From assembly GCA_018711135.1 (NCBI GenBank), contig DVIS01000046.1, positions 1 through 59,895 of the forward strand: DNA of 59,895 nt. Reading direction: 5' to 3'. Positions 7,621 to 31,450 of this stretch are shown one piece after another (the stretch's first letter is position 1; each line of letters starts with the position of its first letter). The DNA is from Candidatus Onthousia faecavium. GTDB lineage: Bacteria; Bacillota_I; Bacilli_A; RF39; UBA660. The notes beneath the pieces were generated by a model that saw only the letters and a program-made list of their open reading frames with translations, was not told where the DNA came from and did not search any database. Made by a program: the position numbers and the translations under genes.

Positions 7621-9477
7621 CTAGGAAGCAAGGGCAAGTGTGAAAGGATTTTGCAGAGTTCCATCTCCCCCGGTGATGATGACGTTTTGTTTTAGATTTA
7701 GGGATGGTTTAATGCTGATAGCAACTTGTGTGGTGTCAGTAGGGATTGAACTACCGCTGTTACGAATACGATGCACATAATTTGTATTATTATATGGTGT
7801 TAAAGTCCAATACATAGTTGTTAAATTTGTGGGAATATTTTCTCCTTTTTCACTATATCTTGTAAATTGTCCGGCCATTAACTCACCTAGTCTTAATAAT
7901 CCAACTTTTGTATAGATAATACTTGTTGTAAAAATATTGTCTGTGGTATTGGTATATTTTGCTAATTTATAGGAATCACTATCTCCTACAACACCTAAAT
8001 ACCATGTACTACTTTCTTCTATCATGGCTATATCTTCGGATTTTAAATACCCATTTTCTATATTTAAATAATCTCTATTCAAAAACGTCCCTATTGTATT
8101 GTTATTAGTAAATATTGAATTATTTCCAAAAGTTGTAGTTATAAAATTACCTGACTTTTTTAATGGCTCAGCACTTGTTATTTTTGTGCCCATCACATTT
8201 TCATGACTTACTATTCGATATAAATTATTTTCTCCTGTACCAAACCTTATGTATTCTCCACTATATCTTGTGTTTAATAATGTACCTAAGAGATTAGTGT
8301 CATTATCTCCATCTATACGATAAGGATTATTTTCTGTTCCATTACCTTTTACTATTTTAATACTTGGTTTTAGATTTATTGTCGGACGAATTCCTGCTAC
8401 CTCTGTTGGCAAATCATAACTTATACTACCATCACTAAAAACAACACATACTTGAGTATCATTATATGGCGTGATACTCCACCAACCAAGTCCATTATTT
8501 AAATAACCGGTGGTATAATCTGTACCACTATAACTCATAGTATGTTCATAAGAACTTAATAGACCTACTGGATCAGTCACCAATGTAGTTTTAGCTAATT
8601 TAGTAGTTTCTGCAGTCTCTGTCGCATTCCAGACACTATTCATCTTTATAAACTTTTCTGGCTCTCTTAAATTACCAAGAAAACCGTCAACACTAATATC
8701 ATTTAACCATTCTTCCATATAACTACCTTCAAATGCTGTATTACCACTTTCATTATAAGAAATTGCACTTATATTCCATTGTGTTACTAATTTAACACTA
8801 TTATCACTTGTGTCTATTGATACTGCTCTCCATAATTTACCACTATACCAAATATAGTTATTTGGATCTTCTCCTGTTACAAAGTATTGTTCATTATCTT
8901 CTACATTTATATTATTTTTAGTATCAAAAAGAATTGTATCAGAAACAGTATTAGTTATTTCTCTAAATAAATGTCCATTACTTGGTAAACTAAGATTATT
9001 ATAATCTAGGCCTACACTTACTCCTAAGTTTATTATTTGTTCTTCTTCTGTATGGTTTGCTAGTACTATTTGATAAGTTTGACTAGAACTTATGGTATTA
9101 ACTTTTTCTAGATTTACTCCAGTGTCTATTGGTGGTGTATTATAGTTATCTATGATTTTATAACCAGCAAAGACTCCACTTGGAAGATTATTTAAATAAT
9201 AGAAATTAAATCTAGCCATTCTCTCATTTGGATTACTTAAAGTAATCGTAAAAGTTTTTTCTTCTTTTGGTCCAACAACCAATTTATCTGTACTAACTCC
9301 ATCTATTTTCAAAACATAACTTAATGTCCCCGTAACAATGCTTATAGCATTACTTTTTTCTTTGCTAACAGTAAACATGGCATAAGAAAAGTAACTTGTT
9401 AGTAAAAGAAAAGCAATTAATATTACACATATCATATATATTTTTGATATCTTAGTATTTAATAATATTTGTTTCAT
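7621..9477 (-). CDS. Exported/surface protein: TasA/SipW-type N-terminal module plus two DUF6273-like (C-type-lectin-like) domains
   Basis: Hydrophobic N-terminus ending 'SYFSYAMF'. Two repeats 'WW/YW..TPY...G/SI(R/K)P..NL...G.GT..NP(Y/F)'. N-terminal ~170 aa closely resemble the 29095..30864 protein. Domain names are from recall. Confidence 0.65.
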   Translation of the reverse strand: MKQILLNTKISKIYMICVILIAFLLLTSYFSYAMFTVSKEKSNAISIVTGTLSYVLKIDGVSTDKLVVGPKEEKTFTITLSNPNERMARFNFYYLNNLPSGVFAGYKIIDNYNTPPIDTGVNLEKVNTISSSQTYQIVLANHTEEEQIINLGVSVGLDYNNLSLPSNGHLFREITNTVSDTILFDTKNNINVEDNEQYFVTGEDPNNYIWYSGKLWRAVSIDTSDNSVKLVTQWNISAISYNESGNTAFEGSYMEEWLNDISVDGFLGNLREPEKFIKMNSVWNATETAETTKLAKTTLVTDPVGLLSSYEHTMSYSGTDYTTGYLNNGLGWWSITPYNDTQVCVVFSDGSISYDLPTEVAGIRPTINLKPSIKIVKGNGTENNPYRIDGDNDTNLLGTLLNTRYSGEYIRFGTGENNLYRIVSHENVMGTKITSAEPLKKSGNFITTTFGNNSIFTNNNTIGTFLNRDYLNIENGYLKSEDIAMIEESSTWYLGVVGDSDSYKLAKYTNTTDNIFTTSIIYTKVGLLRLGELMAGQFTRYSEKGENIPTNLTTMYWTLTPYNNTNYVHRIRNSGSSIPTDTTQVAISIKPSLNLKQNVIITGGDGTLQNPFTLALAS

Positions 9478-9501: not shown

Positions 9502-9535
9502 AATAAGAACAGGATAACTCTATCCTGTTCTTATT
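9502..9535 (-). terminator. Leader hairpin (putative attenuator) upstream of the 618-aa gene
   Basis: Perfect 15-bp inverted repeat AATAAGAACAGGATA (9502-9516) / TATCCTGTTCTTATT (9521-9535) with a 4-nt loop, about 25 nt before the main ATG. Confidence 0.75.
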
Positions 9536-9618
9536 CTATGATTAAAGAAAGTACTTAAGCTTCTAAAGCCCCCCCCCCAGGTAACTTGTTGTAAACGTGC
9601 GCTAGTGCTCATTTTCAT
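9520..9618 (-). CDS. Putative poly-G leader peptide, in-frame state (G10)
   Basis: MKMSTSARLQQVTWGGGFRSLSTFFNHRIRTG*; RBS AAGAAGG; C10 on + at 9569-9578; the stop TAG (9520-9522) lies at the hairpin loop. Confidence 0.65.
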   Translation of the reverse strand: MKMSTSARLQQVTWGGGFRSLSTFFNHRIRTG

Positions 9619-9683
9619 ACCTTCTTTCTATCTTTAACTTAACACCAGTTTAACATAATTTAAAGATATCAACAAGAACTTTC

Positions 9684-24346: not shown

Positions 24347-26176
24347 TTAAGCTTCGGCTACACTTTCAAATTGTGAATTATAAAGTTCGGCATAGAAACC
24401 ATTTTTCTCTAATAATTCATCATGTGTTCCTTGCTCTACTATATCTCCATCTTTCATAACTAAAATTAAATTAGCATTTTTAATGGTAGAAAGACGGTGA
24501 GCTATAACGAAACTAGTTCTACCCTCCATTAAATGATCCATTGCTTGTTGAATTAAAGTTTCCATTCTGGTATCTACACTACTTGTAGCTTCATCAAGAA
24601 TTAAAATCTTTGGATCTTTTAATATTACTCTAGCAATCGTTAAAAGTTGTTTTTGTCCAGCGGAAACGTTATCACTTTCTTCATTTAAAACCATATCGTA
24701 ACCATCTGGTAGAGTTCTAATAAAGTGATCAACATGACTGGCAATAGCGGCATCATATACAGCTTCATCGCTTGCATTTAAATCACCATAGCGAATATTT
24801 TCTTTAATTGTATCACTATAAAGCCAAGTATCTTGTAAAACCATACCAAATAAACTACGCAAATCATTACGTTTCATATCTCTTATGTCAACACCATCTA
24901 TTTTGATAGAACCACTATTAACATCATAAAAGCGCATTAATAGTTTAACAATTGTTGTTTTACCAGCACCAGTTGGTCCAACAATAGCAATCTTTTGTCC
25001 TTTCTTCATAATAGCGTTAAAGTCGTTAATGATAATTTTATTTTTATTATAACCAAATTTAACATCTTCAAAAGTAACAGTATTACCCATTTTTTCTAAG
25101 TCATAATTAACATCAGTTATATCAGGAATTTCTTCTTTTTCTTCTAAAAATTCAAAGACACGTTCACTTGAAGCCACCATAGATTGAATCATATTACCAA
25201 CTTGAGCAATTTGAGCTAAAGGGTTCATAAAATTTCTAATATATTGAGTAAATGATAAAATGTCTCCAACCTCAATTCTATTTTTAATAACCAAGTATCC
25301 TCCTAAAATAGAGATTAAAACATAACCAATATTACCAATAAAATTCATAATTGGATGCATCATACCTGAGAAAAATTGCGCTTTCCAAGCCGAATTATAA
25401 AGTTGTTCATTAGTCTTACTAAAATCTTCAATAGTTTTCTTTTCACCATTAAATAGTTTAACAACTGTATGTCCTGAATAAATCTCTTCAATCGTACCAT
25501 TAATTTCCCCTAGATAATTTTGTTGATCTAAGAAATATTTTTGAGAGTGTTTCATAATAAAGCTCATCATAAATAAAGCGATTGGAACAATAACTAAGGT
25601 TACTAATGTCATTAAAGGACTAATTGTTAACATCATAACAACAACACCAATTAAAGTTGTAACTGATGTTAGGATTTGCGAAATTGATTGATCTAAACTT
25701 TGAGATAAAGTATCAACATCGTTTGTAACTCTTGAAAGTATTTCTCCTGTAGTTTTACTTTCAAAATATGATAGAGGTAATTTATGCATTTTATGAGATA
25801 TCTCTTCCCTCAAATTAAAAGTTACCTTTTGATTTACTCCACTCATAATAAAAGCTTGGATATATGAGAAAAGTGAGCTAATAATGTATAGGCCTAATAA
25901 GGTTAATAAAATACCTGCTATTTTACCAAAGTTGATTCCAGCGGTTGTTCCCATTACTTTTCCCACTAGGCCATTAAAAATTTCTGTTGTAGCTTGACCT
26001 AAGATTTTAGGACCAATAATAGAGAAGATAGCACTACCTATAGCAAAGATAATAACTAAAATTAAACTAACTTTATAGGTAGATAAATACTTAATTAATT
26101 TCTTTAACGTTCCTTTAAAGTCTTTAGCTTTAGAGGTAGAGCCCATTAAAGGTCCATGATTATTTCTACTAGGCAT
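24347..26176 (-). CDS. Heterodimeric multidrug-type ABC exporter, subunit 2
   Basis: TMD plus NBD; GPTGAGKTT, 'VSAGQKQLL', 'ILDEATSSVD'. Confidence 0.92.
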   Translation of the reverse strand: MPSRNNHGPLMGSTSKAKDFKGTLKKLIKYLSTYKVSLILVIIFAIGSAIFSIIGPKILGQATTEIFNGLVGKVMGTTAGINFGKIAGILLTLLGLYIISSLFSYIQAFIMSGVNQKVTFNLREEISHKMHKLPLSYFESKTTGEILSRVTNDVDTLSQSLDQSISQILTSVTTLIGVVVMMLTISPLMTLVTLVIVPIALFMMSFIMKHSQKYFLDQQNYLGEINGTIEEIYSGHTVVKLFNGEKKTIEDFSKTNEQLYNSAWKAQFFSGMMHPIMNFIGNIGYVLISILGGYLVIKNRIEVGDILSFTQYIRNFMNPLAQIAQVGNMIQSMVASSERVFEFLEEKEEIPDITDVNYDLEKMGNTVTFEDVKFGYNKNKIIINDFNAIMKKGQKIAIVGPTGAGKTTIVKLLMRFYDVNSGSIKIDGVDIRDMKRNDLRSLFGMVLQDTWLYSDTIKENIRYGDLNASDEAVYDAAIASHVDHFIRTLPDGYDMVLNEESDNVSAGQKQLLTIARVILKDPKILILDEATSSVDTRMETLIQQAMDHLMEGRTSFVIAHRLSTIKNANLILVMKDGDIVEQGTHDELLEKNGFYAELYNSQFESVAEA

Positions 26177-28376
26177 TTTCTAACTCCTCCTTTGATAGTT
26201 GACTTTCAGCTATTTCTTTATAGACAGAACAGTTTTTTAGTAATTCTTGATGAGTACCAATTCCTACAACTTTACCTTCATCTAAAACGACAATTTGATC
26301 TGCTTTTAAAATAGTATTAATACGTTGAGCCACAATAAAGATTGTAGAATCTTTAGCATAATTATATAAAGCTTTTCTTAATTCAAAATCAGTTTTAAAA
26401 TCTAAAGCAGAAAAACTATCATCAAAAATATAGATTTCTGGATTTTTTGCAATCGCTCTAGCAATAGATAAGCGCTGTTTTTGGCCTCCTGATACGTTAG
26501 TACCACCTTGACTAATTGGACTCTTATAGCCTTCTTTTTTACTTAAGATAAACTCTTCGGCTTGAGCAATTCTTGCTGCTTCTATCATTTTCTCATCAGA
26601 CATAGATTCATCACTATATTTGATATTTGATTCAATTGTTCCAGAGAATAAGACTCCTTTTTGTGGAACATAACCAATTTTATCATGTAAATCTTTTTGC
26701 AAAACATCTTTAACATTAATACCATCTACCAATATTTCTCCATTAGTAACATCATATAATCTTGGTATTAAATTAATTAAAGTTGATTTTCCACTACCAG
26801 TTGAACCAATAAAAGCAGTAGTTGTTCCTGGTTTCGCAGTAAAAGTTACATCAGTTATAACATCTTCATCACTATCAGGATATCTAAATGAAACATTTTT
26901 AAACTCTACTAAACCTTTAATTCTCCGACCAAATTCTTTTGGTTTTTCTGGATCTTTAATAGATTCATCAGTTTCTAATATTTCCATAATTCTATTAGCA
27001 GAAACATTAGCACGTGGTAACATAATAGAGAACATTGATATCATTAAGAATGACATAATTATTTGCATAGCATATTGAATAAAAGCTAGCATATCTCCAA
27101 CTTGTAATAGTCCATTATCAATAGCATGCGCTCCTTGCCAAATAATTAAAATACAAATACCATTCATGATTAACATCATTAAAGGCATCATTAAGTTCAT
27201 AACTCTATTAACAAAAAGGTTTGTTTTCTTTAAATTAATATTAGCATTACTAAATCTTTCTTCTTCATATTTTTGATTAGAGAAAGCTCTAATAACCGGA
27301 ATACCAGTAATAATTTCTCTTGTGACTTGATTTAATTTGTCAATAAGTTTTTGAACTTTCTTAAACTTAGGCATGGTTAAAGCAAATAATGTAAAGATTA
27401 CTACTAAAACTACGATTATTCCTAACCAAATAATATAAGTCATTGATGGAGCAGTAGCAAATACTTTTCTAACAGCACCAAAGGCAATAATTGGAGCATA
27501 AATGAATAATCTTAAAGTCATTATAATCATCATTTGTACTTGTTGAATATCATTGGTACTTCTAGTAATAAGTGAAGAAATACCAAATTGTTTATATTCA
27601 GCAGTTCCAAAGTTTAAGACTTTTGTAAATTCTTTCTTACGAACACGTTTTGATAATCCAGACCCTACTCTAGCTCCTAATAAAACGGTTAGAATAGTAG
27701 CAGTAACGCTAAGTAAAGATAATCCTAACATTTTAAGACCGGTAATAATGATGTAGTTAGTTTGAATACTATCAGTATCTAATCCTACCTCAATATATTC
27801 TAACTTTATTGCACTAACAGCACTTTGTGAAATGATACTATCAGGCATAGATGAGAATTGTTCATTAATATTGGCTCTCATTTCTTCAAGCTGTTCTATA
27901 GGTAAAAAAGCAATAACATCAATAATAGCTGCATCTTGCATTTCCAAAGGCATATCTTTTTTAATTTCATTTTGAATATTCTTTGCTTCTTCTTCATCAC
28001 TTGTAAGCATGAAATCGATTAAGATTGCTTTTTCTAAATCACTATTTAACTTATTTTCATCTTTGATAACATAAACTGGTTCTTCATCTAAAATATCATA
28101 ATCATATTGAGAACTCTTTTCTGTTACTAAATTATAATTAGCAAGTATTTCTTCCTTTGTATCTTGATCAACAAAAAGTAAGATTTCATTTAATTTAGAC
28201 TCTCTAATTACTTTAGGATTAGTCTCACTAATTCCTCCTTGTTGGACACCAACATTAATAATATTAGATGTATATCCAGGAATAGTTAAGTCACAGTTAG
28301 CTTGAACTACTAAAAGTAAAATAATTAGAATAACAGAAATTATATTATCTTTTAAATATCTAAATATTTTTAACAT
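26169..28376 (-). CDS. Heterodimeric multidrug-type ABC exporter, subunit 1 (with extracellular insertion)
   Basis: TMD plus NBD; GSTGSGKST, 'VSGGQKQRL', degenerate 'FDDSFSALD'. Confidence 0.92.
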   Translation of the reverse strand: MLKIFRYLKDNIISVILIILLLVVQANCDLTIPGYTSNIINVGVQQGGISETNPKVIRESKLNEILLFVDQDTKEEILANYNLVTEKSSQYDYDILDEEPVYVIKDENKLNSDLEKAILIDFMLTSDEEEAKNIQNEIKKDMPLEMQDAAIIDVIAFLPIEQLEEMRANINEQFSSMPDSIISQSAVSAIKLEYIEVGLDTDSIQTNYIIITGLKMLGLSLLSVTATILTVLLGARVGSGLSKRVRKKEFTKVLNFGTAEYKQFGISSLITRSTNDIQQVQMMIIMTLRLFIYAPIIAFGAVRKVFATAPSMTYIIWLGIIVVLVVIFTLFALTMPKFKKVQKLIDKLNQVTREIITGIPVIRAFSNQKYEEERFSNANINLKKTNLFVNRVMNLMMPLMMLIMNGICILIIWQGAHAIDNGLLQVGDMLAFIQYAMQIIMSFLMISMFSIMLPRANVSANRIMEILETDESIKDPEKPKEFGRRIKGLVEFKNVSFRYPDSDEDVITDVTFTAKPGTTTAFIGSTGSGKSTLINLIPRLYDVTNGEILVDGINVKDVLQKDLHDKIGYVPQKGVLFSGTIESNIKYSDESMSDEKMIEAARIAQAEEFILSKKEGYKSPISQGGTNVSGGQKQRLSIARAIAKNPEIYIFDDSFSALDFKTDFELRKALYNYAKDSTIFIVAQRINTILKADQIVVLDEGKVVGIGTHQELLKNCSVYKEIAESQLSKEELENA

Positions 28377-28987
28377 TCTTTCTCCTCCTCTTTAAGACAT
28401 CCATACTTTAATATTTCTAGTTGTGCATAATAGTCATTAAGTATATCTTGATTAAGTATATCTTCTTTGAGTAATTTAAATAGTGCTATCATTAAAAGAT
28501 GCATATTAATCGCAAAAATAAGTTCAAGATGTCTTTTTGCAGTATCAGTTAATTTTTCTAAATTGATGTTAGGAATTAGTTTCTTTAAGAGTCTTTTATC
28601 TCGAAAACCAAAGGTTCTTTTTGACTCTTCCATAATAGTGATATTTTCAAGTGACTTTTTAAAGAAATTGATATTGGTATTTTTAAAAGCTTTGTAACAG
28701 TTACTGATAGTATCATAAAACATTTTAAATATATCACCATCATTTTTAATTAAAGCCTCCATCATGGTCTCTTCAAGAATCTTTCCATGTCTTTCCAATA
28801 AATAAAAGTACAAGTCTTTTTTATCTTCAAAATACATATAAAAGCTTCCTCTAGAAATACCAGCTTCCTTAATAATTCTATTAATTGAAGCTTCATTAAA
28901 GTCATGACTAGAAAACTCATTAAAACTAGCATTAAGTAGTTTATCTTTCTTTTCTTTACTAAGTCTTAAAAAGGTATCACTAGGCAT
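28370..28987 (-). CDS. TetR/AcrR-family transcriptional regulator
   Basis: 'LLNASFNEFS...ASINRIIKEAGISRGSFYMYFEDKKDLY'. Confidence 0.93.
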   Translation of the reverse strand: MPSDTFLRLSKEKKDKLLNASFNEFSSHDFNEASINRIIKEAGISRGSFYMYFEDKKDLYFYLLERHGKILEETMMEALIKNDGDIFKMFYDTISNCYKAFKNTNINFFKKSLENITIMEESKRTFGFRDKRLLKKLIPNINLEKLTDTAKRHLELIFAINMHLLMIALFKLLKEDILNQDILNDYYAQLEILKYGCLKEEEKEC

Positions 28988-29094: not shown

Positions 29095-30864
29095 CTACTG
29101 TAAATTAACTAAAGTAACCCTAAATGTTAAACCATAAGCTGCTATTCCATTATCATCATAATTATCAAAATAAAATATTCCTCCCTGTATAGAACTAATA
29201 AATGCTCCTCCCCGTCCTTGCCAAGCATTATTTGCATCGACTAGTTCTTTTATATCATTATACCAACCCCAATTCTCTCCTAAACCATGAGAAATACAAG
29301 CATTACCACTGCATGAGGTTAGAACATCATCACTTGTATATTTATCATAATATTTAGATTCAGGCATTGTTTCAAAACCAGAGTTTTCCACTAAGCCATT
29401 ATAATTTGCCATTACAAGTTCAAAAGCTCCACCACTCATATCATATACTCCATATATCGTTCCTGTGGTACTTGCTCCTGTTCCATTAATATCTACATCA
29501 TAAGTATATTGACATCCATAATCAGCAGAAGTTCCCCCACTAGGTGCCCCCAAACTACATCCTGTTATTATCTCATCCGATTTATTTTGATACACCTCTT
29601 TATTAGCTCCAGTAAAATTAACATTACCTAACTTTCCATACTTAGATTGAGATAGGTATGTAATAATAGCCCATTCACTATTTTTTATCATATGCGTATC
29701 TACATCAGTACTAAAACCATACCGATTACCAGGATTATTCATTTTTAAACTAACTTGAAACATAGTAGCAACATTAATATTATCCCAACTAGATACATTA
29801 GGTTTAATCATAACATCTAAATTCATAGAGTCAATACCACTTTCTAAAGCTTCAATATTACTACTTGAAGATTCAAACTTACCAACCCAAATTCCTGATA
29901 ACTCTTTTCCATCAAAGGTAAAAGCATCTGGAGTATACCAATCATCAGCACCTATTCCTTCACTTACAAGATATTTGGCTGTTCCTTTATCTTTAACATT
30001 TGGTTCTATAAACTTTATATCTATTTCTCCTGGTAATTCTTGAGTTGGCATTGTTGTTAAAAAATTCCCTTGCTTTCCATAGTAATTAATACCATCTTCA
30101 CTTCCAATACTGTAACTATATCTTGGTATCCATACCCACATAGTTTCAATATCATCCATCGAAATTACAGTGCCAATATCTGCTTCTAAATATGTATCTC
30201 TAGTTGAACTGCTTACTGTTACTGCATTAGCCCATTCGCCTTTATCATAGTTATACCAGTTTGCCTCATCAGTCTTTACCCAATTATTATTCTCATAAAT
30301 AACAGGAATCATATTATTATCTAATTCTGGAGTATTAACTGTAAAAATCTCTTCAAATAAATTTCCGTTACTTGGTAAAGCTAAATCATTATAGTCTAAT
30401 CCGACCTCAACTCCTAAATTGATAACAATTTGCTCATTATTATTATTAATGACCTTTAATTGATAAATTTGACTTGCACCAATTCCTTCTTTTTCAAGAT
30501 TTACTCCAGTTTCTTCTGGAGGAATATTAAAGTCTTTAATCTTTAAATACCCCATTTCAATATTTTCAAATATTGGAGTTATATAATAGAAATTAAATCT
30601 TGCTAAACGATTATTAGGATTACTTAAAGTAATCGTAAAAGTTTTTTCTTCATTTGGACCAACAACTAGTTCATCAGTACTAACTCCATCTACTTTCAAA
30701 TCATAACTTAATGTCCCTGTCACAATACTTATCGCATTATTCTTTTCTTTAGTTACAGTAAACATCGCATAAGAAAAGTAACTTGTTAATAGTAATAAGG
30801 TTATTAAAATTACACTTATTATATATATTTTTGATACTTTAGTATTTAATAATAGTCTTTTCAT
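29095..30864 (-). CDS. Exported/surface protein: shared TasA/SipW-type N-terminal module plus FGE-sulfatase-like (C-type lectin fold) C-terminal region
   Basis: N-terminus paralogous to 7621..9477. 'MWVWIPRY', 'GIWVGKFE', 'HM.KNSEW....YL.QS.YG', 'GT.YGVYDMSGG..E.V', 'RGG...G.F...G...FRV'. Confidence 0.65.
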   Translation of the reverse strand: MKRLLLNTKVSKIYIISVILITLLLLTSYFSYAMFTVTKEKNNAISIVTGTLSYDLKVDGVSTDELVVGPNEEKTFTITLSNPNNRLARFNFYYITPIFENIEMGYLKIKDFNIPPEETGVNLEKEGIGASQIYQLKVINNNNEQIVINLGVEVGLDYNDLALPSNGNLFEEIFTVNTPELDNNMIPVIYENNNWVKTDEANWYNYDKGEWANAVTVSSSTRDTYLEADIGTVISMDDIETMWVWIPRYSYSIGSEDGINYYGKQGNFLTTMPTQELPGEIDIKFIEPNVKDKGTAKYLVSEGIGADDWYTPDAFTFDGKELSGIWVGKFESSSSNIEALESGIDSMNLDVMIKPNVSSWDNINVATMFQVSLKMNNPGNRYGFSTDVDTHMIKNSEWAIITYLSQSKYGKLGNVNFTGANKEVYQNKSDEIITGCSLGAPSGGTSADYGCQYTYDVDINGTGASTTGTIYGVYDMSGGAFELVMANYNGLVENSGFETMPESKYYDKYTSDDVLTSCSGNACISHGLGENWGWYNDIKELVDANNAWQGRGGAFISSIQGGIFYFDNYDDNGIAAYGLTFRVTLVNLQ

Positions 30865-30892
30865 CTCTTTCTCCTTTCATTTAACCATAAAA

Positions 30893-30920
30893 AAGAACAG
30901 AATCCTTCTATCCTGTTCTT
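30893..30920 (-). terminator. Leader intrinsic terminator (putative attenuator) upstream of the 589-aa gene
   Basis: Minus strand AAGAACAGGAT-AGAAGG-ATTCTGTTCTT followed by TTTT (11 pairs including one G-U), about 28 nt before the main ATG. Confidence 0.75.
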
Positions 30921-30950
30921 ATTCCACGATTAAAGAAAGTACTTAAGCTT

Positions 30951-31055
30951 CTAAAGTACCCCCCCCCAGGTAACTTCTTGTAAACGGGTGTTAGTATAAA
31001 TTTGGTACACCAATTCTTTAGGATATACCATCATCTTTATTCCCTTCATCTTCAT
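30951..31055 (-). CDS. Putative poly-G leader peptide, out-of-frame state (G9)
   Basis: MKMKGIKMMVYPKELVYQIYTNTRLQEVTWGGVL*; C9 on + at 30959-30967. With G8 or G11 it would read ...YFRSLSTFFNRGIRTG* and stop at 30908-30910 inside the hairpin. Confidence 0.6.
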   Translation of the reverse strand: MKMKGIKMMVYPKELVYQIYTNTRLQEVTWGGVL

Positions 31056-31137
31056 TACTTCCTTCCTATCTTCTATTAAAGAATAGCATAATTAACTAAT
31101 ATCTGTCTAGCTAATAAAGAAAAAATAAACTTTTTCA

Positions 31138-31450
31138 CTCCTTGTTATCCCAAAGCCCTAATTTCAAGATAAAATATATTCTATTCTCCATAAGCTTGAA
31201 TTTCACTAAAAACAATAAACACTATTTTTTCACTATTCATTTTAATCTTAAACATCATTTAATACTTTCAAATCTTTATTTACATAAGTAGGAAAATTTC
31301 TTAAAGCTATTATTCTCTTGATAATCTAAAAATAGTTATAAACAAATCTAACACAACCAAAAGTTTTTATGAATTAATAGTTTTTGATTACCTGTTGGAT
31401 ATAGTCTAAACTTATATACTTTATATGCTTCCACTTTGATACCTCCCCTG
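31138..31450 (-). mobile_element. Non-autonomous internal-deletion derivative (MITE-like) of a tnpB element
   Basis: GTG at 31434 gives VEAYKVYKFRLYPTGNQKLLIHK/TFGCVRFVYNYF (TnpB N-terminal helix, frameshifted). It joins directly to 3'-end sequence homologous to 59108-59240. Confidence 0.8.

Follow-up and report, generated by a model that had tools for sequence, protein, structure and literature searches.

A poly-G tract within a leader-peptide reading frame as a candidate terminator-linked switch of surface-protein genes in uncultured gut Bacilli

What does a run of nine guanines do ahead of a gene for a putative surface protein in an uncultured gut bacterium? The question arises from contig DVIS01000046.1 of Candidatus Onthousia faecavium (59.9 kb, 27.8% GC; the whole stretch of DNA analysed here, hereafter the window), in which only two G runs of at least seven nucleotides (nt) occur, a G9 at 30959-30967 and a G10 at 9569-9578, with shuffled sequences averaging 0.39 matches to G7. 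The G9 run belongs to a leader (copy 2, W2) that precedes the gene for a 589-amino-acid (aa) protein, and the G10 run to a homologous leader (copy 1, W1) that precedes the gene for a 618-aa paralog. An earlier reading of the window, referred to here as the original prediction, had taken the two leaders for phase-variable switches caught in opposite states. We find it likely that the region is a cis-acting expression switch of the 589-aa gene, in which a hypermutable G tract within a leader-peptide open reading frame (ORF) works together with an intrinsic terminator.

All parts of copy 2 lie on the minus strand. The leader transcript is preceded by a promoter-like site at 31080-31109 (TAGACA, an 18-nt spacer and a TG-extended TATTCT), assigned by consensus match only, and this is followed by the Shine-Dalgarno (SD) region of the leader, GGAAGGAAG (31058-31066), which was placed by position and by folding and also provides the 5' strand of a long-range helix, P1. 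With G9, the leader ORF runs from 31055 to 30951 and encodes a 34-aa product, MKMKGIKMMVYPKELVYQIYTNTRLQEVTWGGVL, ending at TAG 30951-30953, 30 nt 5' of the terminator hairpin; it is therefore in the configuration predicted to be OFF. The tract, which is the proposed site of slipped-strand switching, ends 95 nt 5' of the ATG at 30864. A second reading frame beyond the tract, frame 'a' (30908-30958), encodes YFRSLSTFFNRGIRTG and is reached only with G8 or G11; reading by hand then gives ...WGG(G)YFRSLSTFFNRGIRTG and a stop, TAG 30908-30910, inside the hairpin. Frame 'a' contains the anti-SD segment TACTTTCTTTA (30931-30941; core TACTTTCTTT), which forms the 3' strand of P1. The intrinsic terminator (30885-30920) consists of a hairpin at 30893-30920 (AAGAACAGGAT, AGAAGG and ATTCTGTTCTT) with an 11-base-pair (bp) stem, followed by a T-run. 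It was recognised by a terminator scan, by folding (-11.3 kcal/mol, z = -3.6) and by compensatory pairs among homologs, and is the sole terminator-like site in the 800 nt scanned, where shuffled sequences lead one to expect 0.1. About 30 nt past the hairpin are the SD and ATG of the 589-aa gene (29095-30864, minus strand), whose product combines a membrane anchor at the N terminus with a conserved beta-sandwich domain and a C-terminal part that varies.

Copy 1, which occupies 9505-9628 of the same strand, is built from the same parts: an SD at 9620-9628, a leader ORF at 9520-9612/9618, the G10 tract and a hairpin at 9505-9532. Its leader is 16 codons shorter than that of copy 2 ahead of the tract, and remains in frame. 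The 29-mer CTTTAGAAGCTTAAGTACTTTCTTTAATC that follows the tract has exactly two exact matches in the window (30928-30956 and 9540-9568) and none in shuffled sequences. The 5' arm of the hairpin is identical in the two copies, and a single C-to-T change in the 3' arm converts a G-C pair to G-U. Copy 2 carries an extra TA between the tract and the 29-mer that copy 1 does not have, and it is this TA together with G9 that sets the frame of copy 2. With G10, the leader of copy 1 passes the tract in frame, and its stop, TAG 9520-9522, falls inside the hairpin. From these stop positions the 618-aa gene is predicted to be ON and the 589-aa gene OFF; the 618-aa copy also has a weaker U-tract, and its hairpin (-15.9 kcal/mol) was not called by the terminator scan because that U-tract is interrupted. 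The original prediction had read the frame-preserving difference of 16 codons, the identical 29 nt, the altered 3' arm with pairing retained, the upstream stop with G9, its relocation into the hairpin by G8 or G11 and the opposite states of the copies from the window, and every one of its statements about the sequence checks out; only the extra TA had been left implicit.

An exact-protein look-up showed that both tract lengths recur elsewhere. The 589-aa locus in an independent metagenome contig assembled from short reads (L087) again has G9, the 618-aa locus in two independent contigs from further samples (L088 and L089) has G10, and G9 followed by TAC is found in a related locus (L101). Since the independent contigs carry matching tract lengths, we do not regard G9 and G10 as sequencing errors.

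How general is this arrangement? A search with the shared N-terminal part of the proteins matched 109 unnamed metagenome relatives. A genome scan gave 155 matches, of which we kept 80; these 80 all come from gut metagenome-assembled genomes of uncultured Bacilli or 'Tenericutes', Candidatus Onthousia among them, and a single genome contributes up to seven of the kept loci (eight leaders). A G run of at least six nt lies about 110 nt 5' of the start codon in 56 of the 80 loci, and the other 24 are truncated by the contig end, have shorter or interrupted tracts, or have ordinary promoters. Scanning metagenomes with a DNA pattern added 17 further leaders, some of them from human gut samples, and some precede other membrane-anchored surface proteins, one with PARCEL repeats. 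In all, the collection comprises 84 homologous leaders, drawn from about 25 genomes and metagenomes of uncultured gut Bacilli.

The order of parts is constant in these leaders: an SD (GAAAGAAGGTA), an ATG with a short N-terminal part, GTTTACAAnnnGTTACCT, the G tract, a variable segment and TACTTTCTTTCAT, followed by a stop codon inside the terminator hairpin, a T-run, and the SD and start of the gene. TG-extended -10-like boxes can be read about 25 nt 5' of the leader SD in the homologous leaders. Length differences among loci in the N-terminal part are multiples of three nt, and a pattern search found an SD-led ATG in frame with the tract in 69 of the 84 leaders, which supports the view that the leader ORF is real and bears out the coding constraint that the original prediction had claimed from two copies. 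Frame 'a' contains no stop between the tract and TACTTTCTTT in any of the 84 leaders, as against 107 and 243 stops in the other two frames, which end 2-29 nt after the tract. At least ten unrelated versions of the variable segment, which differ in length by multiples of three, all keep it open. In 76 of the 78 leaders for which a T-run was located, the frame 'a' stop lies 13-23 nt before it; the two remaining values, 5-10 nt, are artefacts of the search, which matched a T-run in the hairpin loop. The stop position relative to the hairpin, singled out in the original prediction as the conserved feature, thus holds across the family, and the terminator stem shows the covariation that it had proposed to look for, with two compensatory changes among homologs (U-A to C-G and A-U to G-C). 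A divergent leader with G11 (L129) lacks the conserved motifs; its SD, ORF and G tract are kept, as are an open frame of 22 codons and a stop in the loop of the hairpin. Together, the open-frame counts, the stop in the hairpin and L129 indicate that selection has kept translation from the tract into the terminator open in one frame only.

The N-terminal parts of the leader peptides vary among loci in other ways. A 24-nt unit (GGGTAAATTAATTCGTCAATTCT, or ending in CAATCTACA) occurs as one or two tandem in-frame copies 60-150 nt 5' of the tract in a subset of 13 leaders, and adds GK(I/L)IRQ(F/S)(W/T) repeats to the peptide. Copy 2 belongs to a third N-terminal class (MMVYPxExVYQxYTxTRLQ), together with four other leaders.

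Tract lengths differ between loci and between strains. Among the 84 leaders there are 42 with G9, 24 with G10, four with G11, four with G7, three with G8, one with G13 and six with G6, the last being mostly remnants of interrupted tracts. Once duplicate loci are set aside, 11 leaders are in frame (about 14%), 43 would come into frame by loss of one G and 22 by gain of one. The in-frame state is reached by tract length in two leaders (G8 in L102 and G13 in L032), by loss of a T ahead of the tract in three, by changes at the 3' edge of the tract in copy 1 and three others, and by a one-base shift upstream of the tract in L097. An identical downstream protein follows an out-of-frame leader (T+G9+CAG; L127) in one sample and an in-frame leader (G8+CATT; L128) in another. 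At one further locus four fetched contigs, from three samples, have G10 and another sample has G9, although these are long-read assemblies, prone to homopolymer errors, and the evidence is weak. Six independent samples carry the interrupted tract GGGAGGGG, in frame and without any difference, an invariance that is expected once slippage is disabled. At further loci sampled in several assemblies the tract is absent or interrupted, so that direct evidence of length polymorphism is thin. No genome with several leaders among the kept loci has more than one clearly in frame, an observation which incomplete sampling keeps from being statistically meaningful.

We propose that these elements would operate as follows. 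Transcription would start about 25 nt 5' of the leader SD, and ribosomes would translate the leader. With G8 or G11 the leader would stay in the single open frame and stop at the TAG in the 5' arm or loop of the hairpin, so that a ribosome positioned over the hairpin would allow RNA polymerase to read through and the gene would be transcribed (ON). With G9, as here, or with G10, the leader would stop at least 30 nt upstream, the terminator and the SD:anti-SD helix would form, and most transcripts would stop short of the gene (OFF). A lineage would pass from one state to the other through slipped-strand mispairing of the tract at replication. We infer that switching takes place within populations; antitermination by the ribosome, and the direction and size of the effect on expression, would follow by analogy with a characterised system described below.

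Folding of the leaders bears on the second half of this scheme. In every leader folded, by minimum-energy and by consensus folding, the leader SD pairs over 10 bp with TACTTTCTTT(C) to give P1, which encloses the ORF start and the tract, and the terminator folds separately. P1 shows no covariation; both of its strands are nearly invariant across homologs, and covariation therefore speaks neither for nor against it. After a leader has been completed, P1 could silence its further translation as long as no ribosome is passing over the anti-SD segment. A conserved antiterminator hairpin is unsupported in typical leaders: pairing of the anti-SD segment with the 5' arm of the terminator gave -1.4 kcal/mol in one typical leader, 182 of 200 shuffled sequences folded at least as well, and the only such pairing of note (-8.1 kcal/mol) is specific to copy 2. 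The ribosome itself is thus the likely antiterminator.

The mechanism itself is already known, and its direct experimental precedent, to which the original prediction made no reference, is pil1/pil3 of Streptococcus gallolyticus, in which gain or loss of GCAGA repeats alters the length of a leader peptide and switches pilus expression (Danne 2014, PMC3894217). There, leaders that end 28-39 nt 5' of the terminator give low expression and leaders that end within or past it give high expression, and removal of the start codon, added stops and deletion of the terminator act as the model predicts, making the switch dependent on translation and on the terminator (PMC3894217). The cassette described here has the same order of promoter, short repeat-containing leader ORF, intrinsic terminator and surface-structure gene; the ORF is led by an SD and holds the repeat, and the length of the repeat sets the leader frame and hence the position of the stop. 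In both systems a stop far upstream is opposed to a stop within the hairpin, low and high expression, in that order, being measured in pil and predicted here, and neither needs an alternative antiterminator hairpin. What appears to be new here is a homopolymer with a unit of 1 nt in place of a pentanucleotide, a single productive frame of three (in pil1, out-of-frame changes give long leaders), an extra conserved SD:anti-SD helix, and a cassette common to many paralogs in a genome and to several protein families, which so serves a multigene surface-protein repertoire, in uncultured low-GC gut Bacilli.

Replication slippage at G tracts controls pilus genes in Bifidobacterium breve, a Gram-positive gut commensal (PMC9187656). 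Like these genes and the contingency genes of Campylobacter jejuni, the loci described here have G runs of 8-11 nt with a mode at G9-G10, presumably subject to replication slippage, and encode surface structures of gut bacteria. In those two species, however, the tract lies inside the structural gene and its slippage truncates the protein, whereas the tract described here belongs to a separate ORF upstream, about 95 nt from the start codon, and its target would be transcription termination. This also excludes intragenic homopolymer phase variation, since the 589-aa ORF itself has no G run of at least seven. A leader ORF at an intrinsic terminator, with the position of the ribosome deciding whether the terminator forms, is familiar from translation-coupled attenuators that lack an amino-acid sensor, such as the Escherichia coli pyrBI leader and those of the Firmicute resistance genes bmrCD and vmlR. 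Leaders of that kind also run into or lie next to the terminator, but they respond to physiology (UTP-dependent pausing or antibiotic-stalled ribosomes), whereas the end point here would be set genetically by tract length. Clostridioides difficile cwpV, a phase-variable surface protein, is likewise controlled by formation of an intrinsic terminator in its 5' leader; its switch is a site-specific DNA inversion and not a repeat in a leader ORF. A full-text literature search for phase variation through poly-G or homopolymer leader peptides by termination or attenuation found only the streptococcal case.

Several other classes of regulation could be set aside. A promoter-spacer repeat of the Neisseria porA or Treponema tpr type does not fit, as the tract lies 3' of the leader SD and ATG, inside the ORF, and the promoter-like site is at 31109-31080; by hand count, any -10-like box beyond the tract would lie 22-23 nt from the conserved TTTACA, too far for a promoter spacer. 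An amino-acid-sensing attenuator of the trp/his type is not indicated either, given that no competing antiterminator is supported and that the downstream genes encode surface proteins and not enzymes of amino-acid biosynthesis. We also considered alternative start codons that would read the open frame from G9 or G10, and rejected them because neither the ATG at -9 nor the one at -20, which lie in the other two frames, is significantly associated with tract length (Fisher p = 0.26 and 0.34).

Several points weigh against a switch by tract length and termination. Firstly, the consensus length at the window loci is the same across independent samples (G9 in 2/2, G10 in 3/3), so that hypermutability is deduced only from differences between loci and strains. 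Secondly, if phase were random one leader in three would be in frame, and the observed share is far smaller; either the OFF state is heavily preferred, in vivo or through mutational bias, or being out of frame does not simply mean OFF. Candidate causes of the shortage are selection against expression in the gut, a mutational bias to G9-G10 of the kind described for Campylobacter tracts, and partial decoding of G9 and G10 templates. Thirdly, coupling of transcription and translation is reportedly loose in Bacillus subtilis, and antitermination by the ribosome would then need pausing of RNA polymerase. Finally, several loci have promoter-like sequence 3' of the terminator, which means that the leader is not always the sole control of the gene. 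At nine loci we noted a conserved module of about 90 nt, 10-130 nt past the leader terminator, with promoter-like TTGATA, a 17-nt spacer and TG-extended TAAYAT, and the motif GAATAAAAGATAAnAnTTTGGGYRAGACTA in the 5' untranslated region before the gene; genes with this module may have a second, leader-independent promoter or another regulatory RNA.

The first two of these points lend themselves to the main rival explanation, which places the action of the tract at the level of RNA or decoding: slippage of RNA polymerase or +1/-1 ribosomal frameshifting would feed the open frame from G9 and G10 templates, giving graded attenuation, possibly dependent on GTP or tRNA-Gly and comparable to the UTP-sensitive pausing at pyrBI. 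It would account for the stable consensus lengths, for G9 and G10 making up 66 of the 84 tracts with most loci exactly one nt out of frame, and for an open frame that is maintained although seldom in frame; tracts of 9-10 nt also have the RNA-DNA hybrid length that favours slippage. We nevertheless disfavour this explanation and think it unlikely, because +1, -1 and in-frame states coexist among close relatives and programmed recoding would be expected to fix one offset. No conserved stimulatory element, such as a downstream structure or a hungry or stop A-site codon, is found at a fixed distance, interrupted tracts occur both in and out of frame, and replication slippage at G tracts is established in other bacteria (PMC9187656).

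The leader might instead act as a structured RNA regulator, for instance a riboswitch or a leader bound by a protein or small RNA, with the G run and the C/U-rich segment as recognition elements and the small ORF incidental. The nucleotides of GTTTACAAnnnGTTACCT-Gn and TACTTTCTTTCAT are indeed more conserved than the downstream coding sequence, L097 keeps them despite a different frame before the tract, and the 10-bp helix is predicted in all leaders that were folded; in Helicobacter pylori, a variable G-repeat in an mRNA leader is the target of a small RNA. We consider this improbable. Rfam 15 gave no match at gathering score in the whole window and none in 30800-31200 at E <= 1, and P1 lacks covariation. 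A recognition element also leaves unexplained why frame 'a' has no stops in 84 leaders against 350 in the other frames, why indels come in multiples of three, why SD and ATG are spaced as they are and why the stop falls inside the hairpin, and the divergent L129 keeps the logic of the ORF and not the sequence motifs.

Still less probable is that the small ORF stands alone as the gene of a secreted or regulatory peptide, for instance one with a double-glycine leader, with its own terminator and with the surface gene transcribed separately. The WGG motif ahead of the variable C-terminal part of the peptide, the promoter-like sequences after some terminators and the ABC exporter genes downstream of the 589-aa gene would suit such a gene. 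At most loci, however, both window copies among them, the start codon follows the T-run after only about 30 nt that include an SD, too short a stretch to hold a promoter; the peptide beyond the tract is poorly conserved except for the anti-SD codons, and most alleles would yield truncated peptides. The neighbouring ABC proteins have no peptidase C39 domain, and on this ground we rejected a double-glycine bacteriocin leader. That G9 is a homopolymer sequencing or assembly error hiding an in-frame allele is scarcely credible: G homopolymers are error-prone and contigs frequently break near the tract, but the breaks carry no information because the leader is itself a multi-copy repeat, the G9 of copy 2 recurs in L087 and, with TAC, in L101, and out-of-frame alleles are in the majority across dozens of independent assemblies.

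What do these leaders control? The two window proteins are 69% identical over a 174-residue N-terminal part, and the remainder differs. Neither Pfam nor NCBIfam gave a match for the 589-aa protein. The shared N-terminal part, modelled with AlphaFold (predicted local distance difference test score, pLDDT, 80), shows a membrane helix followed by an eight-strand beta-sandwich, which had no significant match in the PDB (best E = 0.013, to generic PapD/MSP-like folds). A TasA/camelysin-like N-terminal domain, suspected from an SYAMFTV motif, was rejected on the same results, and in view of them we use only the generic label of putative membrane-anchored surface proteins for the family.

Comparison with the independent contigs also revealed differences within the genes. 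The 589-aa gene and its counterpart in L087 have an identical leader and N-terminal domain, then become a mosaic (about window positions 29600-30270), and are strongly diverged from about 600 nt into the gene, which suggests that C-terminal parts are exchanged like cassettes among family members. In L088 and L089 a deletion of about 80 nt relative to window positions 8650-8740 (minus strand; about nt 508-590 of the 618-aa gene), at the junction of the N-terminal domain and the variable C-terminal part, splits the gene into ORFs of 178 and 425 aa and leaves the leader unchanged (G10). Several homologs are annotated as two overlapping ORFs, for instance at 3935-3942 in L001 (313 and 278 aa) and at 3947-3960 in L006 (319 and 287 aa). 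A second frameshift switch inside the genes was rejected, since there is no repeat at the break in L001 and L006 and the split in L088 and L089 is due to the deletion; the split genes of L001 and L006 resemble pseudogenes or errors of assembly.

The 589-aa gene is followed directly (24347-28987, minus strand) by the gene of a 205-aa TetR-family regulator and by two fused ABC exporter genes, for products of 735 and 609 aa; the TetR gene overlaps at its end with the start of the 735-aa gene. At other loci the neighbours are of a different kind: in L127 (1-73) a switched family member lies directly downstream of a gene with the phage antirepressor-like domains ORF6N and pRha, and another member (L002) adjoins genes with DUF87 and sigma-70 region 4. 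Some family members may therefore be located in mobile elements.

A wider reading, which we offer as a speculation with the odds clearly against it, is that the cassette is the common control unit of a genome-wide variable surface-protein repertoire in a lineage of uncultured gut Bacilli with reduced genomes. The repertoire would span several families, with at least eight copies in one genome, almost all of them one slip from ON and at most about one in frame per genome; the G run may in addition be a slippage or pause site for RNA polymerase, with graded, GTP-sensitive read-through. The excess of out-of-frame leaders would be explicable by selection, by mutational bias or by decoding tricks.

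So far, the mechanism has been demonstrated in a single streptococcal species, for two of its pilus operons only; the portable poly-G cassette, widespread in uncultured gut Bacilli of chickens, other animals and humans, would extend it. As the switch lies outside the structural gene, scans for contingency loci that are confined to coding sequences would miss it. The predicted ON or OFF state of a whole surface-protein repertoire could be read from metagenome sequence, which would provide a testable model of surface variation for organisms that are not yet culturable.

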